From Deltaproteobacteria bacterium (GTDB lineage Bacteria; Desulfobacterota; Desulfobulbia; Desulfobulbales; JAJRZW01), in NCBI GenBank assembly GCA_024275015.1, contig JAJRZW010000016.1, positions 76,275 through 140,274 on the forward strand: a stretch of 64,000 nucleotides of DNA, written 5' to 3'. Shown piece after piece: positions 6,699-15,483 of this stretch. The position numbers were made by a program, and so were the translations under genes. The first letter of the stretch is position 1. Every line of letters begins with the position of its first letter. The notes below the pieces were generated by a model. It did not search any database and had not been told where the DNA came from. It worked only from the letters and a program-made list of their open reading frames with translations.

Positions 6699-6809
6699 GT
6701 AAGTGGTTACAGGGTGTGCCTGATGTGGACGAGCGGTAAGGCGCCATGTTACTGGTGCTACATAAGCCTTGCCGCTCGTACGCAGCAGGTGCGCCCTGTG
6801 ACCGCTTAC
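6699..6809. repeat. 111-bp imperfect palindromic element
   Basis: GTAAGTGGTTACAGGGTGTGCCTG...CAGGTGCGCCCTGTGACCGCTTAC, inner stem ACGAGCGGTAAGGC/GCCTTGCCGCTCGT; shorter relative at about 6649-6679. Confidence 0.75.
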
Positions 6810-6926
6810 CAAAAACCGACATAAAAAACTTGTCATACGACCATATTAGCAGTTAGACTCCTAAATTCAATATTACTCCTGCGCTATTGCTATCATACGA
6901 AAAAGATAAAAACCATGATTTTCATG

Positions 6927-6955
6927 TTGACAAGGTCTTCCTGAAAATTTAGATT
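6927..6955 (+). promoter_or_regulatory. sigma70 promoter of the beta-propeller operon
   Basis: TTGACA-17 bp-TAGATT. Confidence 0.75.
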
Positions 6956-6960
6956 AGACG

Positions 6961-7108
6961 TACCACGTTGTGGTAGTCTCCGGAAACGGGGATGCCTCCG
7001 GTTTCTTGGTTGCAAGAATAAAAGAGGCAGGAAGAGAGGCTTGGGGAAATACAGATTGTATCAAAACAAAACTGTTTTCCCTGTTTCCCGCCCTGAAACG
7101 GCGGGAGA
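6961..7108 (+). ncRNA. candidate structured 5' leader (cis-regulatory RNA)
   Basis: Five consecutive hairpins between promoter and RBS, including a GAAA tetraloop stem followed by GCCTCC. Confidence 0.45.
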
Positions 7109-7137
7109 AAAATCCAAACTGAAGAAGGGGTAAAAGT

Positions 7138-8178
7138 ATGAAGAAAAAACTGCTTGCGGTAGGAGCCGCTCTGGCGCTTGGTATTGCCGGGGCAACAGGG
7201 GCCAGCGCCCTTGACCTGAAAGGTATCGCCTATGTCCAGGGCCACGGTGGTCATATCGCCGTTATCGACCTGGCCACCGGCGCGGTTGGCCGTTTCTCGC
7301 ACGGTAAACCCTCCGACGCGGTCACCGTGTCAAAAGACGGCAACACCCTGTTCACCTTCTCCCTTGACGGCTATGCCAAACAAATCAATGTCAACACCGG
7401 CAAACAGACGGCCTGGACCCGTCTGGGCCAGAAACACTGCGGTTCAAACTACGCCCCTGACGGAACCATCTGGGTCTCCGACATGAAAGACGGCAAAATC
7501 TACGTGTACGACCCCAAAAAAAACAAGCTGGTTGACAGCTTCCCGGTCGCCAAATCCATCTGCGGCATCAACTTCTCCAAGGACGGCAAGTACTGCTATG
7601 TCTCCGACATGCCCGGCGGATTCATTTCCGTGGTCAACGTCAGGACCAAAAAAGTTGTGAGCAAGATCAACGGCGTTGGTAACTTCATTCACCGGGCCGC
7701 TATCACCCCGGACGGTAAATACCTGTGGCAGTCCGAGGGTAACGAGCTTGCCAACGGCAAACCGGTTGGTGTCGGATATACCTCCACCGGCGGCTCTCCC
7801 GGCGGCGTAAGCATCGTCGACGTCAAAACCGGCAAGGTCGTTGACTTCGTCCTCACCGGCGGCAACCCCCATGACGTTGACTTCACCCCGGATGGCAGAT
7901 ATGCCGTAGTTGCGGTTCGGCAGATGCCCGAACGCACCGACTCCGCCCTGATGATCGTCAACACCAAGACCAAAAGGATCGTCAAGATGTACTCTGCCTG
8001 TAAATCCTGTCACGGGGTTCAGGACGTTGAGATCGACGATGAAATTGACGGTGGTCGGCCCTTCCTCTGCGCCGTTCAGGTCGACTGGAATCGCACTTCA
8101 ATGCCCAAGGGTGTCGAGCTTGAGACCAAAGCCCAGTCCATCCCCACGGTCAGCCCGAAATGTGCTGACCTCAAGTAG
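7138..8178 (+). CDS. secreted YVTN/YncE beta-propeller with a C-terminal CxxCH
   Basis: Signal peptide (ASA cleavage); repeats FSKDGKY, ITPDGKY, FTPDGRY; CKSCH. Confidence 0.85.
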   Translation: MKKKLLAVGAALALGIAGATGASALDLKGIAYVQGHGGHIAVIDLATGAVGRFSHGKPSDAVTVSKDGNTLFTFSLDGYAKQINVNTGKQTAWTRLGQKHCGSNYAPDGTIWVSDMKDGKIYVYDPKKNKLVDSFPVAKSICGINFSKDGKYCYVSDMPGGFISVVNVRTKKVVSKINGVGNFIHRAAITPDGKYLWQSEGNELANGKPVGVGYTSTGGSPGGVSIVDVKTGKVVDFVLTGGNPHDVDFTPDGRYAVVAVRQMPERTDSALMIVNTKTKRIVKMYSACKSCHGVQDVEIDDEIDGGRPFLCAVQVDWNRTSMPKGVELETKAQSIPTVSPKCADLK

Positions 8179-8207
8179 ACCGGCATAAAACCTAAGCATT
8201 ATCCATC

Positions 8208-8247
8208 ACAGGGGAGAGGGCCACCGTTGCCCTCTCCCCTGTTTTTT
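8208..8247 (+). terminator. rho-independent terminator
   Basis: ACAGGGGAGAGGG/CCCTCTCCCCTGT stem followed by a T-run. Confidence 0.85.
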
Positions 8248-8382
8248 CGTCTGCCCGCCGTCTGCCGCGACAATTTGCCGCATCATGCCGGAGTGAAAAT
8301 TGCTGACAAGAACCACGACAATATGTCACATTAAAAACAATCTATTCTCTGAAAGACCTTCTCTTTTAATCGAAAAAGCCAA

Positions 8383-9588
8383 ATGAAATTAAAAATCCTC
8401 TCCCTGGCCTATTCCAATATGCGGCGCAAACTATTTCGCAGTATCGCCATTGCCCTGGCGGTAATGGTGGTCGCCGCCACCCTGTTTTCCGTCACCACGA
8501 TCATGGATTCGGTCGAACAGAGCCTCGAACGCGGGACATCCCGCCTCGGCGCCGACATCATGGTGGTACCGGCCAAGGCCGAAGAAACGGCCCGAACCGC
8601 ACTTCTGGCCGGCAAGCCCTCAACTTTTTACATGGACGCGAAAATCGTCGATCAGGTCAGAAAAATAAAGGGGGTTCGCTCCGTTGCGGCCCAGACCTTT
8701 TTAAAAACCTCGACATATTCCTGCTGCGACATCAGCAATATGCTTTTAATCGGCTTTGACCAGGCCAACGACTTCACCATCAAGCCCTGGCTCACCCAAA
8801 CACTTGGACGACCGCTGAAAAACGACGAAGTCATAATGGGGCGCAACATCACCGCCTATGCCACCGGCTTTCGCCTGAACTTCTTCAACACCCCCTTCAC
8901 CGTTGCCGGGATGCTGGAAGAAACCGGGATGGACTTCATCGACAACTCGATCTTCATCCCCTTCAGCGGTCTGGAAAGAATCCGGGCCAATACGGAAAAA
9001 GACGCGAAGACCAAGGGTGCCCTGCCCGCCGGCAAGGTCTCGACCATTCTGGTGCAGGTTGAGCCACAGTTTACCGCCGACCGGGTCGGCCTGTTCATTG
9101 AGGCCGATATCAACGGGGTAAAGGCCATTGTTACCGACAAAATCATCGCCTCGGTCCGCCGGCAGATGTTCATTCTCCTTCGGAGTGTTCTGTCGGTAAG
9201 CGTTATCCTCTGGATCATGGCCCTGATCCTCATCGGGGTGGTATTTTCAATGATCGTCAATGAACGCAAAAAGGAAATCGGCATCTTCCGGGCCATGGGG
9301 GCTAAAAAAAGTCACATATTCCACCTGGTGATGGCTGAGGCAACCATCCTCTCTCTTGTCGGCGGCGTCGTCGGCATCGCCACCGGCAGCAGTATCCTCA
9401 ACATCTTCCGCGACAGCATCAATGCCAGTCTCCACGTCCCCCACCTGTGGCCGAGCCCCGGCAGAATGCTGTTTCTCATCGCCTTCTGCCTCATCCTTGC
9501 GATTCTCACCGGGGTGATCGCCGCCCTTATCCCGGCAGTCAGGGCCTCACTTATTGAACCATATGAAGCCATCCGCGGCGGAGAATAA
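8383..9588 (+). CDS. MacB/LolE-type ABC permease with SCC motif
   Basis: RLGADIMVVP, YSCCD, NERKKEIGIFRAMGA (FtsX domain). Confidence 0.9.
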   Translation: MKLKILSLAYSNMRRKLFRSIAIALAVMVVAATLFSVTTIMDSVEQSLERGTSRLGADIMVVPAKAEETARTALLAGKPSTFYMDAKIVDQVRKIKGVRSVAAQTFLKTSTYSCCDISNMLLIGFDQANDFTIKPWLTQTLGRPLKNDEVIMGRNITAYATGFRLNFFNTPFTVAGMLEETGMDFIDNSIFIPFSGLERIRANTEKDAKTKGALPAGKVSTILVQVEPQFTADRVGLFIEADINGVKAIVTDKIIASVRRQMFILLRSVLSVSVILWIMALILIGVVFSMIVNERKKEIGIFRAMGAKKSHIFHLVMAEATILSLVGGVVGIATGSSILNIFRDSINASLHVPHLWPSPGRMLFLIAFCLILAILTGVIAALIPAVRASLIEPYEAIRGGE

Positions 9589-9801
9589 TTCCAGGAACAG
9601 CCCTGTTGCACGCATTAACATCCCGTTAAAAAACGGATTGTTATCGGCACCCGGCTTCCGGGCCAAACCCGGAACAACTTTGTAAGCTTTGCTAAATCAA
9701 GTCGTATATTCAACAAATTAAGGCAATCAGGAAAGTTGAACAAAAACTCACAAATATTACAGTCAAAAACGGGCTAACCTGTGGCACCTGGTGAACCATA
9801 G

Positions 9802-9894
9802 CAGGCCGTTGAAAAAGCCGTCCATGGTTTTTCAATTCCGGCAAAATCGGCGGGGTGTCCATGCGCCGCGCACAGCCCGTTTTTCAACGAGCTG
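9802..9894. mobile_element. MITE family A, short copy inside the ABC operon
   Basis: CAGGCCGTTGAAAAAGCC...TTTTTCAACGAGCTG; solo terminal hairpin also at about 9616-9643. Confidence 0.85.
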
Positions 9895-9933
9895 GTAGAT
9901 GGCCCTGTAAAAAGTACTTGACCAATATCGTCA

Positions 9934-10653
9934 ATGACTATGGTTAAAAGCAAAAGGAGCAACACCATGATTGAGGTCGTTAATCTGGAAAAAGACTATC
10001 GCCTTGAAGGGGAAACCATCAAGGCGGTCGACAATATCAACTTCAAGGTAGATCAGGGGGAGTTCATGGCCATCCTCGGTCACTCGGGCAGCGGCAAGAC
10101 CACCCTGCTTAACCTCCTTGGCGGTCTCACCCGCCCCACCCACGGAACGGTAAAGATAGAAGGCCAGGACATCTGGGATCTTTCCGATAACCAGTTATCA
10201 GAGATGCGTAATGAAAAGATGAACTTCATCTTTCAGTTCGCGAGCCTGATCCCGACCCTGAACGTCATCGACAATATCCTTCTCCCCACCGCTTTTGGCA
10301 AAAAAAGAGAACGAAAACATTACGACCACGCCATGGAACTTCTGGGCATAGTCGGCCTCACGGAAAAAGGCCAGGCATACCCGGCTCAGCTCTCCGGCGG
10401 CCAGCAGCGGCGGGTGGCCATCGCCCGCGCCTTTATCAACGCCCCCAAAATAATATTGGCCGACGAGCCCACCGGCGATCTTGACGAAAAGACCGAGCAG
10501 GAGATGGTCAACCTCTTCCGGAAAATGAACCAGGAAGAGAATACCACCTTTATCATTGTCACCCACAGTTCAAGCCTCGCGGCCCAGACCGATCGACAGA
10601 TGCGGATGACCAGCGGCAGGCTTGAAGCAGAGCCCAACGGCTGCCCCCAATGA
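9934..10653 (+). CDS. ABC transporter ATP-binding protein (LolD/MacB-like)
   Basis: GHSGSGKT, LSGGQQRR, ILADEPTG; start may be ATG 9967. Confidence 0.95.
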   Translation: MTMVKSKRSNTMIEVVNLEKDYRLEGETIKAVDNINFKVDQGEFMAILGHSGSGKTTLLNLLGGLTRPTHGTVKIEGQDIWDLSDNQLSEMRNEKMNFIFQFASLIPTLNVIDNILLPTAFGKKRERKHYDHAMELLGIVGLTEKGQAYPAQLSGGQQRRVAIARAFINAPKIILADEPTGDLDEKTEQEMVNLFRKMNQEENTTFIIVTHSSSLAAQTDRQMRMTSGRLEAEPNGCPQ

Positions 10654-12344
10654 CCGCGATTGTTTTTTTCATCACCGGCATTCTCTTTTTCATGGTGCCG
10701 CATTTCCTTCTCCCCATGGATCTCCTCTCCGGAGGACGGGGGGCATGGCTGTTAAGTGACTGCTCATTCCAGTTTCATCCGGAGACTGTAAGCGGTATCA
10801 TCCTCATTCTGGCCGCGATTTTGAGAATGAAGGGGAAAAATGGATCCGTGGCGGCGTTGCTCGCCGCCGCCATTGCTCTAACCCAGGCCGCGATCATGCG
10901 GCCGTTGAGTTTTTATCTCCACAGCGAAGAAAACCTGGTCATCCTCGGCCAGACCTACTCCATGCGCGGCCACAGTCATATCCGCGAGACCCTGGTTTTT
11001 CTTGGCATGATCATCGTGGTAACCGTAATTGTCGATATATTGCTACGCCGGCGGACACGATGGACAATCAGTCTCTTTAACCTCTCGCTCAGCAATATCA
11101 TGCGAAAACTGTTTCGCTCAACCGCCCTTGTCCTCGCCCTGAGCGTGGTCATCGGCGCCTTTTTTGCCGATGTTCTCCTGACCGACAGTATTAGCAACAC
11201 CCTTGAGCTTGGCGCCGGCCGCCTCGGCGCCGATCTGGTGGTGGTCCCGAAAACCGCGGAAAAAGAGGCCCGCGAGGTCCTGATCAACGGCACCCCGCAC
11301 ATATTCAATCTTGACCGCGGGATCCTTGAAACTCTTAAAAAATGGCCGGAAATCGAAAAAATATCACCGCAACTATTCTTCCGCCCCTTCTCATACCTGG
11401 TATGCTGCACCACCGAGCAGGTTCTGGTGGTAGGATATGACCCGAAAACCGATTTCACCATCGCCCCCTGGGTCAATTATTTCCTCCATAAACGCCAGAA
11501 AAACAACGAAATCGTGGTCGGGGCCAGGGTAAAATTTTACCCTGGACAGCAAATATCTCTCTTCGGCAACCGCCTCGCGGTGGTCGCCTCTCTTGATCCC
11601 GCCGGCATTGGTTATTTTGATCGCAGCGCCTTTATCCCCATGACAGGGGCACAGGAACTGATAGAGTCCCTGAAGGATACGGAAAAAGAAGGCCGGTTGC
11701 ATAAAAGAAAAAACATGAACGATCTCTCTCTGACCCATCTCTTTGATTCCCCGACTGTCCAGAAAAAACAGCTGGCCGAGGTTAATCCCCATGGAATTTC
11801 AGTGCTCATGGTAAAATGTCGTGACGGTGTCGCGGTGAAGAAAATCGCGGCCCGAATCGAAAAGGAACTGCCCTCCACCGCGGTGGTCAACGTTCGGGCC
11901 GCGACCATCTCGGTGAAACGACAGTTGACATCCATGCTCGACGCATTTTTCCTGCCGATCATCATCCTCATGGGCATGGGCACGGTTATCCTTGCGGTGG
12001 TCTTTTCCATGAGCGCCAACGAAAGAAAACGCGAGGTCGGTCTCCTGCGGGCCATGGGGGCAAAGGAAAGAGATATATTCACCCTCTTCCTCCGCGAGGC
12101 GATAATGATCTCCATCCTTGGCGGGACATTCGGGGTATTGGGAGGAGGGTCTATTATCATCCTGTTTAAAAACAGACTCATGGCCACCCTGAACCTGCTA
12201 TACATCTGGCCCCAAGCCGCAACAGTGGCCGAGGTGATCATCATTACCCTGGCCGCGAGTGTATTAATCGGTATAATTGCCGGTCTTTTTCCGGCGATCA
12301 GGGCCGCCCGTCAGGAACCATATGAATCCTTCCGCGCCAATTAA
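10650..12344 (+). CDS. MacB/LolE-type ABC permease with CC motif and extra N-terminal membrane domain (DUF4418-like, tentative)
   Basis: About 140-aa hydrophobic N-extension; RLGADLVVVP, LVCCT, NERKREVGLLRAMGA. Confidence 0.85.
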   Translation: MTAIVFFITGILFFMVPHFLLPMDLLSGGRGAWLLSDCSFQFHPETVSGIILILAAILRMKGKNGSVAALLAAAIALTQAAIMRPLSFYLHSEENLVILGQTYSMRGHSHIRETLVFLGMIIVVTVIVDILLRRRTRWTISLFNLSLSNIMRKLFRSTALVLALSVVIGAFFADVLLTDSISNTLELGAGRLGADLVVVPKTAEKEAREVLINGTPHIFNLDRGILETLKKWPEIEKISPQLFFRPFSYLVCCTTEQVLVVGYDPKTDFTIAPWVNYFLHKRQKNNEIVVGARVKFYPGQQISLFGNRLAVVASLDPAGIGYFDRSAFIPMTGAQELIESLKDTEKEGRLHKRKNMNDLSLTHLFDSPTVQKKQLAEVNPHGISVLMVKCRDGVAVKKIAARIEKELPSTAVVNVRAATISVKRQLTSMLDAFFLPIIILMGMGTVILAVVFSMSANERKREVGLLRAMGAKERDIFTLFLREAIMISILGGTFGVLGGGSIIILFKNRLMATLNLLYIWPQAATVAEVIIITLAASVLIGIIAGLFPAIRAARQEPYESFRAN

Positions 12345-12386
12345 TTATATGACGGAGTTACGAGACCATCTATATAAGGAGAAAAA

Positions 12387-13355
12387 ATGCGCTACCCCGC
12401 CGTTATACTGACCATAACCCTTCTTCTCCTCAGCGCCTGCAGTCAGGAGGATGAAGCCTCGTACACCCCGCCAAGGTATACCGCCACAGTATACGCCCTA
12501 GCCGCATCCGACCACATAGCCGTCCTTCACCTTAAAGACAATAAACTCGAACAAATCAAACTGGATCGGGAGGGGGCGGATCTCGCCACCGTTGACGGTC
12601 GGCTATTTATCCTCTCCACCGACGGAGCCGTCGCCGAGATAAGGAACCTGATCGTTGGTAAATGGACCCGGGTCAGCGATCACGGCGTTTCCCTGGCGAT
12701 GAAAGACAAAAACACCCTTCTGGTTCTCGGCCGGACAGAGATATGCCTGTATAAACCCGGCAGCGGAGTAAAACAGCGGGTAGCCCTGAAAAAAAGGGCA
12801 AGCGCGATCAGCTTTGACCGGCAAAAGAACCTGATCTGGGCCATCGACCGCAAAGGCAGCCGGGCATTCAGCCTCAACGGTGATAGTTTCAAGCTGGTTA
12901 AAAAGATTGACGGCATCGGCAATTCCCCCCACCACGCCCTGTCCTTTCCGGGTACCAACGAGATCTGGGTCGCCGAGGGTAACGAGTTTATGAACGGCAA
13001 ACCATACGGGGTCGGCTATGCCGGAAACGGAGTGGCGGCAAGCGGAGGGATCAACGTGGTTGACACCATAAACGGCCGCCAGACCGATTTCATCATCGTC
13101 GGCGGCAATGTTGTGGATCTCACTCTCTCGGCGGACAAGAAAAAAATATATGTCGCCACCAGCCAGTACCCCGAATATCTCGATGCGACCATGACGGTTG
13201 TTGACCCTGAACAACGGCGGGGAAAGGCCGAGTTCCGCCTCTGCCTCTACTGCCATGAAGAGCACAACGTCGAGCCCAAGGATGGCAGGGCCATAGTCCG
13301 AGCCATGGCGGTTGTCGAGCCTTTGGTGAAGCCCGTCTCCGGGAAGAAACCATGA
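12387..13355 (+). CDS. lipoprotein beta-propeller with CxxCH, paralogue of 7138-8178
   Basis: Lipobox LSAC; shared EGNE.xNGKP.GVGY...GG motif; CLYCH. Confidence 0.8.
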   Translation: MRYPAVILTITLLLLSACSQEDEASYTPPRYTATVYALAASDHIAVLHLKDNKLEQIKLDREGADLATVDGRLFILSTDGAVAEIRNLIVGKWTRVSDHGVSLAMKDKNTLLVLGRTEICLYKPGSGVKQRVALKKRASAISFDRQKNLIWAIDRKGSRAFSLNGDSFKLVKKIDGIGNSPHHALSFPGTNEIWVAEGNEFMNGKPYGVGYAGNGVAASGGINVVDTINGRQTDFIIVGGNVVDLTLSADKKKIYVATSQYPEYLDATMTVVDPEQRRGKAEFRLCLYCHEEHNVEPKDGRAIVRAMAVVEPLVKPVSGKKP

Positions 13356-13879
13356 AAGTCGGCGCCGTCATCATTCTTGTCGCCATCGTTGTCGCCTTTG
13401 CCTCACCGCAACAGGCAACAGCGGTAATTCCACCATGGGAGATCGAAGGGCTCAAGAACAAACCGGCCCCGGAATTTTCGGCCAAAGACGTCGCAGGCAA
13501 CAATCATATTCTGAAAGAATACCGCGGCAGGGTGGTGCTTATAAACTTCTGGGCCACCTGGTGTTCCCCCTGTCGCCGTGAAATGCCTTCCCTGATAAAA
13601 CTTTACCATAAATACAATAACCAGGGGCTTGTCCTGCTCGCGGTGAGCGTCGATGAACAGCGGCGGGCGGTAGAAAACTTCACCCGCAAGCTACCCCTGC
13701 CCTTTCCGGTGATTTCCGACCCGGAGGAAAAGATATCATCCCACTACAAGGTCTTTGCCTACCCGACCTCATTCCTCATCGACAGGAACGGCATAATCAG
13801 GAAAATAATCACCGGTGAACGCGACTGGCTGGCTCCGGAGTTCACCGCCAGGCTTGAAAAAATGATGGGAGTGGACTGA
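13352..13879 (+). CDS. TlpA/ResA-like thiol-disulfide oxidoreductase
   Basis: INFWATWCSPCRREMP; YPTSFLID. Confidence 0.93.
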   Translation: MKVGAVIILVAIVVAFASPQQATAVIPPWEIEGLKNKPAPEFSAKDVAGNNHILKEYRGRVVLINFWATWCSPCRREMPSLIKLYHKYNNQGLVLLAVSVDEQRRAVENFTRKLPLPFPVISDPEEKISSHYKVFAYPTSFLIDRNGIIRKIITGERDWLAPEFTARLEKMMGVD

Positions 13880-13880
13880 T

Positions 13881-13960
13881 GATGAACTCGTAACAACTCC
13901 CCGCCCGGCGGCCCGGAAATCGCCGTTTTCAGCCGGAGCGGGGAGTTATTACGAATCCAT
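13881..13960. mobile_element. MITE family B, short copy
   Basis: GATGAACTCGTAACAA...TTATTACGAATCCAT with internal GGAAATCGCCGTTTTC. Confidence 0.75.
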
Positions 13961-13991
13961 AATTACTTTTTACAGGACCATAAGGAAGCCC

Positions 13992-14537
13992 ATGAAGAAA
14001 AAAAACCTGCTCATAATTATCATCGCCCTGGCGATCGTCGTTGCCGTCAGCGGACGATGGGAAACTGTCGGCAATAGTGAAATCGCGGCCCGAACCTCCA
14101 TCTTCGGCCCGATATCGACCTATGGCCCCGGCGATAAGGTTTTTGTCCTCCCCGGGGTCTATAAACTACTCCGATTCAAGGCCGAGGCGGTGAATATTGA
14201 TCTCAGCGGTGACGCAGCCATAATGATTGGCACCGGAGCTACCAGGAAGACAGTGGAATGCCAGATTGCCTACACCCTCAGCGACCCGGCGGCACTGATA
14301 AAAAAATTCGGCATCACCCCGCCGGGGGGAGAAATCAAGACGGAGATAAAAAAAATCATCAGCAGCGAACTTTACGCCGCAGCAAAGACCGACAAGGATT
14401 TCATGGGCACCATACCATCCAGGGTCCTTCTGACCGCCAGACTGCTGGATACCCTGAGCCAAAGACTTAATCCGGTGGGGATAAAACCACAAAGCCTCAA
14501 CCTGCGCCTGCGGAAAGACGCAAAAAAGCCGGCCTGA
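13992..14537 (+). CDS. membrane-anchored hypothetical protein (SPFH/band-7-like, tentative)
   Basis: N-terminal TM, RBS TAAGGA. Confidence 0.65.
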   Translation: MKKKNLLIIIIALAIVVAVSGRWETVGNSEIAARTSIFGPISTYGPGDKVFVLPGVYKLLRFKAEAVNIDLSGDAAIMIGTGATRKTVECQIAYTLSDPAALIKKFGITPPGGEIKTEIKKIISSELYAAAKTDKDFMGTIPSRVLLTARLLDTLSQRLNPVGIKPQSLNLRLRKDAKKPA

Positions 14538-14555
14538 GGCAACCGGCCGGCTTTT
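14524..14555. terminator. bidirectional terminator-like hairpin
   Basis: AAAAGCCGGCC/GGCCGGCTTTT between convergent genes. Confidence 0.6.
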
Positions 14556-14570
14556 GAAACAAACAAGGCC

Positions 14571-14667
14571 GTTGGCCTCGCAATAGCGGGCCAACGGCAA
14601 TTGCGTCTATAACTTGTTGAAATTACATGAATCCTGTTCCGTTTACGATACTTGTTACGACTTCATC
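14571..14667. mobile_element. MITE family B, subtype 2
   Basis: GTTGGCCTCGCAATA...TTGTTACGACTTCATC; close relative at 16850-16950. Confidence 0.8.
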
Positions 14668-14682
14668 AAGTTTGCGGCAAGC

Positions 14683-15069
14683 TTACCAGCTTTTGCTAAG
14701 CTTCGCCTTGACCGTGGGAGCGGTAGCACCGGACGGAGTCTCTGCGGTTGAAACCCAGATGGAATAACTGCCGGTAATGCTGTTAAGGCTCGATCCCGAA
14801 ATCGTCCACCCCTCCGGCAACTCTTCCATGGCCGCCACCAGAGTGTTGGCGTCACTTATGGCGGTGGTTTTACTCGGGCTGAAAAGCCTTGAAGCAAAAT
14901 TAACCGCAGCGGCGGCAGAGGCGCCGCCGTAAACTCCATCAGCCGCCGCCCTGGCCGCCTCGGTACGCAGGTCCTGATATTTCGGTACCGCAACCGCGGC
15001 CAGAAGCCCGAGGATAACAATTACCATCACCAGTTCAATCAAGGTAAAACCACGATTATTCCTCAACAT
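14683..15069 (-). CDS. type IV prepilin (MshA-like)
   Basis: G|FTLIELVMVIVILGLLAAVAVPKY prepilin motif; RBS GGAGG. Confidence 0.9.
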   Translation of the reverse strand: MLRNNRGFTLIELVMVIVILGLLAAVAVPKYQDLRTEAARAAADGVYGGASAAAAVNFASRLFSPSKTTAISDANTLVAAMEELPEGWTISGSSLNSITGSYSIWVSTAETPSGATAPTVKAKLSKSW

Positions 15070-15269
15070 GAATACCGCCTCCCTCTTTAGGGCACCTTTT
15101 AGACGTACCTTTTCATCCGACAACTGCGTCAACACCGAAACAGCTCACATAATCTATGAAAATGATATGCTTTCATATTTCGGAGCCCCTTTGTTCCCGG
15201 ACAAAAAATAAAAAAGGTATCCGTTAGTAAGATTTAACAACAGCCGTCCTTTCTACCTTATTATTTACC

Positions 15270-15483
15270 TGGATCCGTGACGGCTTAGTGGCAACCGAGT
15301 ATGTATTCATCTGAATTCATGCGTTTTTTGCCGGATTTTCACTCCGGCGGGAATTTCACCCCGCCGCCCTTCGGGCGTCCGGGAACGACTCATCCGCGGT
15401 GTCGGCAACCCGTTGATATACCGAAGTATAATCAACGTGCTTGCCTCCTTGCGCCTGCGCCGTTCCCGAACGTCACGGATCCA
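15270..15483. mobile_element. MITE family C, full-length
   Basis: 13-bp perfect TIR TGGATCCGTGACG; relatives at 44087-44190, 45276-45329, about 27279 and 36960. Confidence 0.75.

Follow-up and report, generated by a model that had tools for sequence, protein, structure and literature searches.

A seven-gene Desulfobulbales locus with paralogous CxxCH propellers, Cys-Cys MacB-type permeases and a thioredoxin as a candidate haem-c/metal enzyme system with its own assembly machine

Why would a secreted beta-propeller with a haem-binding motif be encoded next to an ATP-binding cassette (ABC) system and a thioredoxin? This question is raised by positions 7138-14537 of the stretch of DNA analysed here, a window of 64,000 nucleotides from a genome of the Desulfobulbales (Deltaproteobacteria bacterium; GenBank assembly GCA_024275015.1, contig JAJRZW010000016.1, positions 76,275 to 140,274; genome G000 in our set). 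The translations of this region contain seven intact open reading frames (ORFs), all on the plus strand, which encode a secreted propeller (propeller A), a permease (permease 1), an ABC ATPase, a second permease (permease 2), a lipoprotein paralogue of the propeller (propeller B), a thiol-disulfide oxidoreductase (gene 6) and a small membrane protein (gene 7). CxxCH motifs bind haem c, TlpA and ResA reduce periplasmic disulfides, and MacB-type ABC systems act on periplasmic substrates. From the letters alone, an initial annotation had proposed that the locus specifies a periplasmic haem or metal enzyme with its own thiol-based maturation or metal-delivery machinery. The Sec export of propeller A, its invariant CxxCH, its ring of thiophilic residues, the thiol reductase, the copper chaperones found in relatives and the periplasm-acting ABC together lead us to a similar reading, in which A is a periplasmic haem-c/metal enzyme, the metal probably being copper, with a dedicated type VII ABC assembly machine; we give this reading about an even chance of being correct.

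Propeller A (7138-8178, plus strand; 346 amino acids, aa) begins with a Sec-type signal peptide, and all of the His and Cys motifs pointed out in the initial annotation were present in its translation: GHGGH (residues 35-39), KHCG (99-102), SICG (140-143), FIHR (183-186), PHDV (244-247), CKSCH (288-292) and FLCA (309-312). Conservation was evaluated in 86 full-length family ORFs, taken from the window and from 80 loci. The CxxCH motif was kept in all 86. In the 34 close members of the family, H36, H39, C101, D115, M116, C142, D157, M158, H185, H245, D246 and C311 were each kept in 33 or 34, and the same residues were kept in at least 45 of the 46 members of a distant clade, despite an overall identity of only 33-39%. 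The expectation that the listed His and Cys positions would be conserved thus held for most of them, but H55 and H100 are missing from the distant clade. Among 28 aligned family members, 27 had a Lys/Arg-rich Sec-type N-terminus with no twin arginine, and in P0061 the RR pair sits only in a long N-terminal extension resembling a mis-called start; export by Sec without a twin arginine fits the insertion of a cofactor in the periplasm. One divergent subfamily is represented by P0178, a 479-aa lipoprotein in which an inserted segment, some 60 residues long, adds a second CxxCH (CAGCH, class-I-like); this fits a redox role.

The AlphaFold2 (AF2) model of A had a predicted local distance difference test score (pLDDT) of 84.2 and a predicted template modelling score (pTM) of 0.82. 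In the structural comparison of this model, six-bladed propellers ranked first, with root-mean-square deviations (rmsd) of 2.1-2.8 Å (the YWTD propellers of nidogen and LDLR, NHL, Kelch and SMP30-type lactonases). The top match was 1npe (Z 27.5, rmsd 2.4 Å over 247 residues), and further matches included the lactonase 8djf (Z 23.5), the PAL structure 3fw0 (Z 22.7) and SMP30 in 4gn7 (Z 22.1). Seven-bladed YVTN and WD40 folds fitted worse, at 3.6-4 Å (seven-bladed 1l0q, 3.6 Å), and NosZ was missing among the 50 best structural matches. When the strands were assigned with DSSP and their order was read by us, C101, C142, H185, H245 and C311 each opened the first, innermost strand of blades 2 to 6. 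In the same model, two SDM motifs close second strands, GHGGH forms a loop in the closing blade, and CxxCH forms a short helix just ahead of the inner strand of the last blade. From this strand order, all of these residues, CxxCH among them, would be expected on one face of the propeller, around the mouth of the tunnel. Six-bladed lactonase-type enzymes bind metal at the tunnel mouth, on their innermost strands. The position of CxxCH in the last blade region agrees with the earlier observation that the motif lies inside the propeller, unlike in cd1 and NirN. The NirS/NirN/NirF and YncE-type propellers resemble A in their periplasmic, YVTN-like repeats, but cd1-type propellers are eight-bladed and have a separate cytochrome-c domain. 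Assignment of A to the c-type cytochromes is putative; it rests on the invariant motif, on the helix predicted at this motif in both A and B, and on the cytochrome-c assembly genes of the host, since G000 holds three genes of family PF01578.

A match to a characterised pathway, which would have told against the earlier proposal, was not found in Pfam, NCBIfam, the PDB or the literature. Propeller A matched generic propeller models alone and no specific family. Its best NCBIfam match was L-NosZ (60.2 bits, cutoff 700), and its marginal Pfam matches were Cytochrom_D1 (29.2 bits, cutoff 25.5) and YNCE (30.9 bits, cutoff 27.1), neither with a single passing stretch. When the PDB was searched with Foldseek, and its sequences with a profile, the matches were confined to designed propellers and to generic ones of the YVTN and WD40 types. 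Public databases name members of the family 'YncE family protein' or 'hypothetical', and literature searches, which left supplements aside, found no publication on it. As weak evidence, no fused longer form of A was found except one generic WD40 giant. Assignment to the seven-bladed YncE/YVTN proteins was rejected, with NF052280 at 35.9 bits against a cutoff of 400 and the Pfam YNCE match extending over 68 of 339 positions. Assignment to L-NosZ (the clade III, lactonase-type form; NF052460, a 480-position model) was rejected as well, as the 60.2 bits fell in two short stretches; this match reflects generic repeat similarity, because, of 14 unrelated control genomes, 7 also give weak matches to this model. 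The six-bladed lactonases (SMP30/gluconolactonase, PAL, Drp35) and the YWTD/NHL propellers share the fold of A, but are only 8-16% identical to it; the lactonase-type propellers hold Ca or Zn with Glu, Asn, Asp and His ligands and have no haem motif, in contrast to the Cys/His/Met residues, CxxCH and dedicated ABC of A. MccA is an octahaem haem-c/copper sulfite reductase with Cys-bound Cu(I) that acts on a sulfur oxyanion. It is a conceptual precedent only, being a multihaem cytochrome and without relation to A in sequence or fold, while the propeller A bears a single CxxCH.

Propeller B (12387-13355, plus strand; 322 aa) has a lipobox (LSAC), and alignment with A (31% identity over 287 columns, E 4e-35) placed EGNE..NGKP.GVGY and the CKSCH/CLYCH pair in register, confirming that B is a lipoprotein paralogue of A with an equivalently placed haem motif. 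The AF2 model of B (pLDDT 84.9, pTM 0.82) showed the same strand layout as A and a helix at CxxCH. B retains CLYCH (286-290), H43, H182 and the AEGNE..G.PYGVG loop, while the Cys/Met ring is missing. Six B proteins from the loci keep only H39, H185, E200, E203, D246 and CxxCH (A numbering), with W317 in four of the six, and in a 24-member alignment of B the lipobox Cys and the AEGNE..G.PYGxG loop were invariant. No Pfam or NCBIfam model matched B, and a search of the ESM Atlas with B returned only generic lactonase and YncE-type clusters.

Gene 6 (13352-13879, plus strand; 175 aa) encodes a TlpA/ResA-type thiol-disulfide oxidoreductase, with matches to AhpC-TSA (116.2 bits), Redoxin (96.5 bits) and Thioredoxin_8 (72 bits), a transmembrane (TM) segment at residues 1-26 and WCSPC at residue 70. 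It has the features of the TlpA/ResA/DsbE class, namely a thioredoxin fold, WCxPC and an N-terminal membrane anchor, and falls below the specific models for ResA (137.9 of the 170 bits required) and TlpA (75.9 of 230). All 16 linked homologues have WCxxC, which is WCxPC in 14 of them. TlpA acts in the biogenesis of copper centres and ResA in cytochrome-c maturation. The locus resembles the TlpA-ScoI-CoxB, PCuAC and ResA biogenesis systems in placing a membrane-anchored WCxPC thioredoxin beside genes for putative Cys-bearing periplasmic metalloproteins, and PCuAC is found in relatives; it differs from TlpA-dependent copper-centre biogenesis in having no Sco and no CuA or oxidase subunit, so that the client would be the propeller. 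Gene 7 (13992-14537, plus strand; 181 aa) has one N-terminal TM segment and no Pfam match. Its positional ortholog in locus L013 (tblastn E 6e-17, 26% identity) matches Band_7 (PF01145, 37.1 bits, cutoff 23.6), and by this orthology gene 7 is putatively SPFH/Band-7-like.

The ResA-like features could also be explained if the locus were a module for haem handling or cytochrome maturation, with A and B as unusual c-type cytochromes, the ABC (HrtBA-like), the ResA-like thioredoxin and a TPR lipoprotein of Nitrospirota serving haem delivery and thiol reduction, and the ring being structural or A a mere electron carrier. ResA is the best NCBIfam match of gene 6 (137.9 bits), what B retains is just the haem motif and two His, and the FtsX-type protein HrtB handles haem. 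The TPR lipoprotein, present at 29 loci, matches TPR_CcmH_CycH (46.2 bits, cutoff 42), but this is one among 34 generic TPR matches. In addition, G000 already has general cytochrome-c assembly genes, and this explanation accounts neither for the NosL and PCuAC genes in the operons of relatives nor for the invariance of C101, C142, C311, M116 and M158 in A alone. We therefore regard it as rather improbable.

The ABC itself was examined in its three parts, permease 1 (8383-9588; 401 aa, 4 TM segments), the ATPase (9934-10653; 239 aa) and permease 2 (10650-12344; 564 aa), all on the plus strand. The permeases are paralogues (32% identity over 428 columns, E 4e-76, with the Cys-Cys pairs aligned), and permease 1 and permease 2 matched FtsX (65.8 and 64.8 bits) and MacB_PCD (46.6 and 36.3 bits), all above the cutoffs. 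The periplasmic domain of permease 1 (residues 45-260) holds C114-C115; permease 2 has about 140 extra N-terminal residues with 3 TM segments, and its C252-C253 aligns to the pair of permease 1. In both proteins TM1 and TM2 are joined by a large loop that holds the Cys-Cys; the MacB topology places this loop in the periplasm, in agreement with the initial annotation. The pair was kept in 70 of 70 A-linked permeases, whereas it occurred in none of 6 permeases of a second, NosL-linked ABC present at some of the same loci. The ATPase, which resembles LolD and the nucleotide-binding domain (NBD) of MacB, matched ABC_tran (127 bits) and LolD (TIGR02211, 246.3 bits, below the cutoff of 307.75). With FtsX, MacB_PCD between TM1 and TM2, four TM segments and a separate NBD, the permeases and ATPase fit the MacB/FtsX type VII ABC superfamily. 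Of the term 'Cys-Cys ABC exporter' that had been applied to them, the Cys-Cys part is therefore sound, whereas 'exporter' is loose, the architecture being that of MacB and LolCDE. The N-terminal part of permease 2 weakly resembles DUF4418 (PF14387; 20 bits, E 9e-4, cutoff 27, covering 2-115 of 117 profile positions), a family that also occurs as a free-standing gene in the operon at 16 Nitrospirota loci (63.3 and 44.7 bits for operon members). Four-nucleotide overlaps join the ATPase stop to the permease 2 start and B to the thioredoxin gene. A complex prediction between A (residues 25-330) and permease 1 (45-260), each entered as an alignment, scored 0.00 against a mark of 0.32 and is neutral on binding.

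The A-linked ABC shares with the 'mechanotransmission' systems MacB, LolCDE and FtsEX the FtsX and MacB_PCD domains, the four TM segments, a LolD-like ATPase and, as in LolC/LolE, a presumably heterodimeric permease pair. It differs in scoring far below every equivalog cutoff, in the invariant Cys-Cys, in the fused DUF4418-like part or adjacent DUF4418 gene and in its constant partner, which is a secreted propeller and not an adaptor with TolC, a lipoprotein substrate or a hydrolase activator. Membership in LolCDE was rejected, as the lolCE model TIGR02212 gave 28.3 and 52.7 bits against 362.45, and LolD 246.3 against 307.75. The permease pair and ATPase might still act as a LolCDE-like sorter, extracting lipoprotein B (elsewhere NosL, PCuAC and TPR lipoproteins) from the inner membrane for the outer membrane; the ATPase does score best on LolD models (246 bits), the permeases match lolCE models weakly (28-53 bits), the presumably heterodimeric pair is like LolC/LolE, and several of the linked proteins are lipoproteins. 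We consider this very improbable, given that all Lol scores are far under the cutoffs (362-540), the universal partner is A, which is not a lipoprotein, rather than B, most loci have a single permease, and the invariant Cys-Cys would be left without a role.

In an index of 5.8 billion proteins, 86 clusters were related to A at E below 1e-44. A library of 1.84 billion representatives at 50% identity gave 145 matches at E<=1e-30, mostly giant multi-repeat proteins, with about 20 single-stretch proteins of 270-480 aa, and 185,579 species genomes contained 162 A-related stretches. The hosts are Desulfobulbia (73-88% identical to A), Thermodesulfovibrionales and magnetotactic Nitrospirota (Magnetoovum, Magnetomonas, Magnetominusculus and Magnetocorallium; 52-69%), and a distant clade (33-39%), mostly Nitrospirota, which includes Ca. 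Sulfobium. Among 41 order-level relatives of G000, the family was present in 5, each time as an A and B pair about 5 kb apart. The full seven-gene order was also found in G012, G026 and G038, with different flanks (DUF748/PrmA/histidine kinase; HrpA helicase). A Cys-Cys permease lies within 1200 nt after A in 60 of 80 loci, or 60 of the 67 with at least 2 kb of downstream sequence, and the ATPase is present in 58 of 80; of the 20 loci lacking a Cys-Cys permease after A, 13 end less than 1.5 kb past A. The genes thus co-occur elsewhere, the point that had been raised as a check, and because the Cys-Cys permease follows A at 60 of the 80 loci and solitary copies of A are few, the core of the operon is A-permease-ATPase and the rest is variable. 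Most loci have only one permease, and the Desulfobulbia variant seen in this window adds permease 2 with its fused DUF4418-like part, B, TlpA and the SPFH-like gene, with no NosL, PCuAC or YeeE. In a quick, unrooted maximum-likelihood tree, A-close, A-distant and B each formed one clade (Shimodaira-Hasegawa-like approximate likelihood ratio test, SH-aLRT, 98, 100 and 100). The A/B split is old, because the B clade includes Nitrospirota-type members. Desulfobulbia A formed one tight clade (SH-aLRT 100) beside Nitrospirota A-close, with which it is 55-69% identical, the fork being unresolved; this suggests that the operon was transferred between the two phyla. Among the variable genes, four loci of one subclade (L062, L064, L070 and L083; for example L070 12955-14004) have, downstream of the ATPase, a putative outer-membrane protein of about 350 aa with an N-terminal CASCGC and no Pfam match, preceded by a conserved secreted protein of about 100 aa with a CGHG motif.

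The genes that vary between loci include copper chaperones. A NosL-like ORF was found in 23 of 81 sources (Nitrospirota), where it lies directly past the ATPase gene or, in many cases, between it and the permease gene, TlpA in 16 sources, PCuAC in 6 loci (PF04314, 57.6 bits, cutoff 29.4) and an FtrD-like Cys-rich lipoprotein in 14 loci. Operon NosL matched PF05573 (36.8 bits, cutoff 24), and one such NosL has a Met-rich tail of MKGM repeats. This linkage strengthens the earlier proposal of a haem/metal enzyme with dedicated maturation or metal delivery, which is still a proposal.

The nearest functional parallel is the NosZ/NosDFYL system, including the haem-bearing cNosZ of Campylobacterota, which has in common with our reading of the locus a periplasmic propeller enzyme, a metal centre at the hub and an ABC powered from the cytoplasm that acts on the periplasmic side, together with the lipoprotein chaperone NosL, here inside the operon of A relatives. 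Copper is relayed from NosL through NosD/NosFY to NosZ (summarised in PMC13068155). The components are nevertheless different. NosZ is seven-bladed, with a seven-His CuZ and a C-terminal cupredoxin carrying CuA, whereas A is six-bladed, has 346 aa and no cupredoxin or COX2 match, presents 3 Cys, 4 His and 2 Met as invariant candidate ligands in place of seven His, and has CxxCH inside the propeller. Likewise, the A-linked ABC is of the MacB/FtsX type VII with Cys-Cys, whereas NosDFYL combines NosY (ABC-2) with the beta-helix of NosD, and no nosD, nosR or nosZ was seen at the A loci. We therefore rejected A as a NosZ (six blades, no CuA, another ligand set) and the locus as a NosDFYL (FtsX/MacB_PCD permeases, no NosD-like ORF at the loci, no NosL in the operon of the window). 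A search of G000 with PF18764 (nos_propeller) gave nothing; as no control genome matched either, it was uninformative.

A second NosL-u100-MacB-type ABC was also found at some loci. In G000, contig C64 (L096, 438-3372) encodes a TlpA-like protein, a NosL with a Met-rich MKMKMKM tail, the small membrane protein u100 and a MacB-type permease without Cys-Cys, and the same TlpA-NosL-u100-MacB-type module adjoins the A operon at several Nitrospirota loci. The u100 marker occurs in 23 of the 41 Desulfobulbales relatives, against A in 5 of 41, and was not found in G001, which has A; for this reason the module is general and not A-specific. By its sequence it resembles an independent copper module of the NosL-ABC kind, widespread and as yet undescribed. 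Elsewhere in G000 (contig C32, L097, 1423-2769) we observed a 448-aa secreted protein in which an N-terminal NosL is fused to a long Met-rich C-terminal part that resembles an outer-membrane barrel, with a histidine kinase and a response regulator as neighbours.

Copper chaperones would also be expected if the locus served copper homeostasis or detoxification, with A and B buffering Cu(I) by Cys, His and Met and the MacB-type ABC expelling the metal, in some taxa via a linked outer-membrane protein, without catalysis. Parts such as NosL, PCuAC, the Met-rich tail and TlpA are typical of copper handling, some loci encode histidine kinases and response regulators of the OmpR type, a TolC-like ORF (c42) or an outer-membrane protein with a Cys-rich N-terminus (c80) lies near some, and MacB-type pumps act in efflux. 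However, the ring and CxxCH are exactly conserved across the A proteins of Nitrospirota and Desulfobulbia, which are 55-69% identical, as would suit an active site more than a buffer, the invariant His after CxxC indicates haem, and no MacA-type adaptor gene was seen at the loci. The promoter-like site and terminator of A, described below, moreover resemble those of a highly expressed structural gene. Taken together, these data make a role in homeostasis alone unlikely.

A second kind of neighbour points to sulfur. At 16 of 80 loci, all Nitrospirota, A is directly preceded by a co-oriented Sulf_transp gene of the YeeE/YedE type (PF04143, 224.8 bits), with gaps of 38-473 nt and once 887 nt (L025, L029, L031-L033, L045, L046, L052, L053, L056, L061, L062, L064, L070, L075 and L083). 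At seven of these loci it belongs to a larger block that also encodes a cysteine desulfurase, another Sulf_transp protein and a binding protein of the phosphonate type. It could thus be argued that the Cys-Cys pairs carry persulfide or polysulfide, that A converts sulfur compounds by oxidation or disproportionation, and that the ABC supplies or removes sulfur and not metal. The 16 upstream YeeE/YedE genes, the desulfurase nearby in 7 loci and the hosts (Desulfobulbia, Thermodesulfovibrionales, magnetotactic Nitrospirota and Ca. Sulfobium) speak for this, but YeeE is absent from and beside the Desulfobulbia operons, including that of the window, and the copper chaperones would be left unexplained. 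The explanation also overlaps with the haem-c/metal enzyme reading, as A might use sulfur as its substrate or contain it as sulfide in a Cu-S centre. As a separate account, we think it improbable. For the enzyme reading, candidate substrates are sulfur or nitrogen oxyanions and N2O, and the hosts together with the YeeE linkage give a hint towards sulfur compounds.

If A is indeed a haem-c/metal enzyme with an assembly machine, the genes could act as follows. A would cross the membrane unfolded through Sec and fold into a six-bladed propeller, and haem c would be joined at C288 and C291, with H292 as axial ligand, by the cytochrome-c maturation system of the host. In the mouth of the central tunnel, a centre of a thiophilic metal would form, which would most probably be copper and might be copper-sulfide, with C101, C142, C311, H185, H245, H36/H39 and M116/M158 as putative ligands. 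The two MacB-type permeases would pair as a heterodimer powered by the LolD-like ATPase. As a type VII ABC, this complex would not pump across the membrane; cytoplasmic ATP hydrolysis would move its periplasmic domains, on each of which the invariant Cys-Cys may hold metal (or sulfur) and deliver it to apo-A, analogous to NosDFY handing NosL-derived Cu to NosZ. TlpA would maintain reduced cysteines in A, B and the permeases, B may be an old, degenerate lipoprotein paralogue that works as a membrane-tethered electron partner of A or as an assembly scaffold, and the SPFH-like protein might arrange the complex within the membrane.

Several points weigh against this reading. The geometry of the ring and its nearness to the haem motif are read from the strand order of a model, and the Cys residues of A could be structural disulfides, or the metal could be Zn, Ni or Fe. 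The operon of the window contains no NosL and no PCuAC, and a genome-level tie between A and the NosL-u100 module was rejected on the counts given above (u100 in 23 of 41 relatives, A in 5 of 41). At 7 of the 67 loci A stands apart without an ABC, although in at least two cases (L047/L039 and L076/L079) the genome has a full operon besides this second copy. The known roles of MacB-type systems are efflux, lipoprotein extraction and hydrolase activation, and we know of none that loads a metal. Finally, expression of the downstream genes may be disturbed in this genome by an element resembling a miniature inverted-repeat transposable element (MITE). Permease 1 and the ATPase are separated by a 345-bp gap (9589-9933), which has no hidden gene and carries a dispersed repeat of about 100 bp (9796-9897) with 54 further matches at 77-91% identity across many contigs of G000; the repeat is not part of the system, and orthologous operons lack the gap (13 nt in L013). 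A second short repeat in the gap (query positions 65-151) matches one other contig, and a plasmid search with the 345-bp gap as query gave no match. Each of the other explanations accounts for part of the gene set, yet leaves the invariant ring or the chaperones unexplained.

Beyond the even-chance reading, we tentatively propose, as a possibility that we rate clearly lower, that A founds a new class of periplasmic enzyme, in which a six-bladed propeller combines covalently bound haem c with a Cys/His/Met-ligated copper (or copper-sulfide) cluster in its tunnel, loaded by the vicinal cysteines of a type VII ABC. Such a system would be a second, independently evolved answer to the task that NosDFYL performs for NosZ, and A would be a catalyst in the sulfur or nitrogen cycling of anaerobic Desulfobulbia and Nitrospirota. 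To our knowledge, NosDFYL is so far the only well-studied ABC-driven assembly line for a metallo-centre. If true, the proposal would mean an unrecognised metallo-enzyme in sulfur-cycling bacteria of sediment and groundwater, magnetotactic Nitrospirota among them, an architecture (haem c and a Cys/His/Met ring on a six-bladed propeller) without characterised counterpart, and a new role, cofactor insertion in the periplasm, for MacB-type ABC systems. The family is a testable candidate for the first enzymes of sulfur disproportionation or oxidation, or for alternative sinks of N2O and N-oxides, and the invariant residues of A offer clear targets for mutagenesis.

The transcription signals around A were examined as well. 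Upstream of A lies a sigma-70-like promoter candidate (6927-6955, plus strand; TTGACA, 17-nt spacer, TAGATT) that matches 10 of 12 consensus positions and is the top of 10 regional sites, on consensus match alone. Thirty nucleotides past the A stop, and thus directly after the gene as earlier noticed, an intrinsic-terminator-like hairpin begins (8208-8242, plus strand), with a 14-pair stem including 10 GC pairs, a 7-nt loop and TTTTTT. It is the strongest such site of the region, which has 23 terminator-like sites against 11.4 +/- 3.5 in shuffled sequence, and by its form it is likely an attenuator that separates the structural gene from the accessory genes. An Rfam scan of 6700-15300 gave no credible match. 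Among public sequencing runs, none of RNA was listed as containing 6900-14600, and the DNA runs that were listed had small shares only. The operon is flanked by unrelated housekeeping genes, with an LPG_synthase_TM protein, a hexapeptide transferase and an Fe-alcohol dehydrogenase upstream, and a pilin, a LysR regulator and an aminotransferase downstream. The pilin gene (14683-15135, minus strand) is type IV pilin-like, with an N_methyl motif, and converges on the end of the operon, with several terminator-like hairpins in between.

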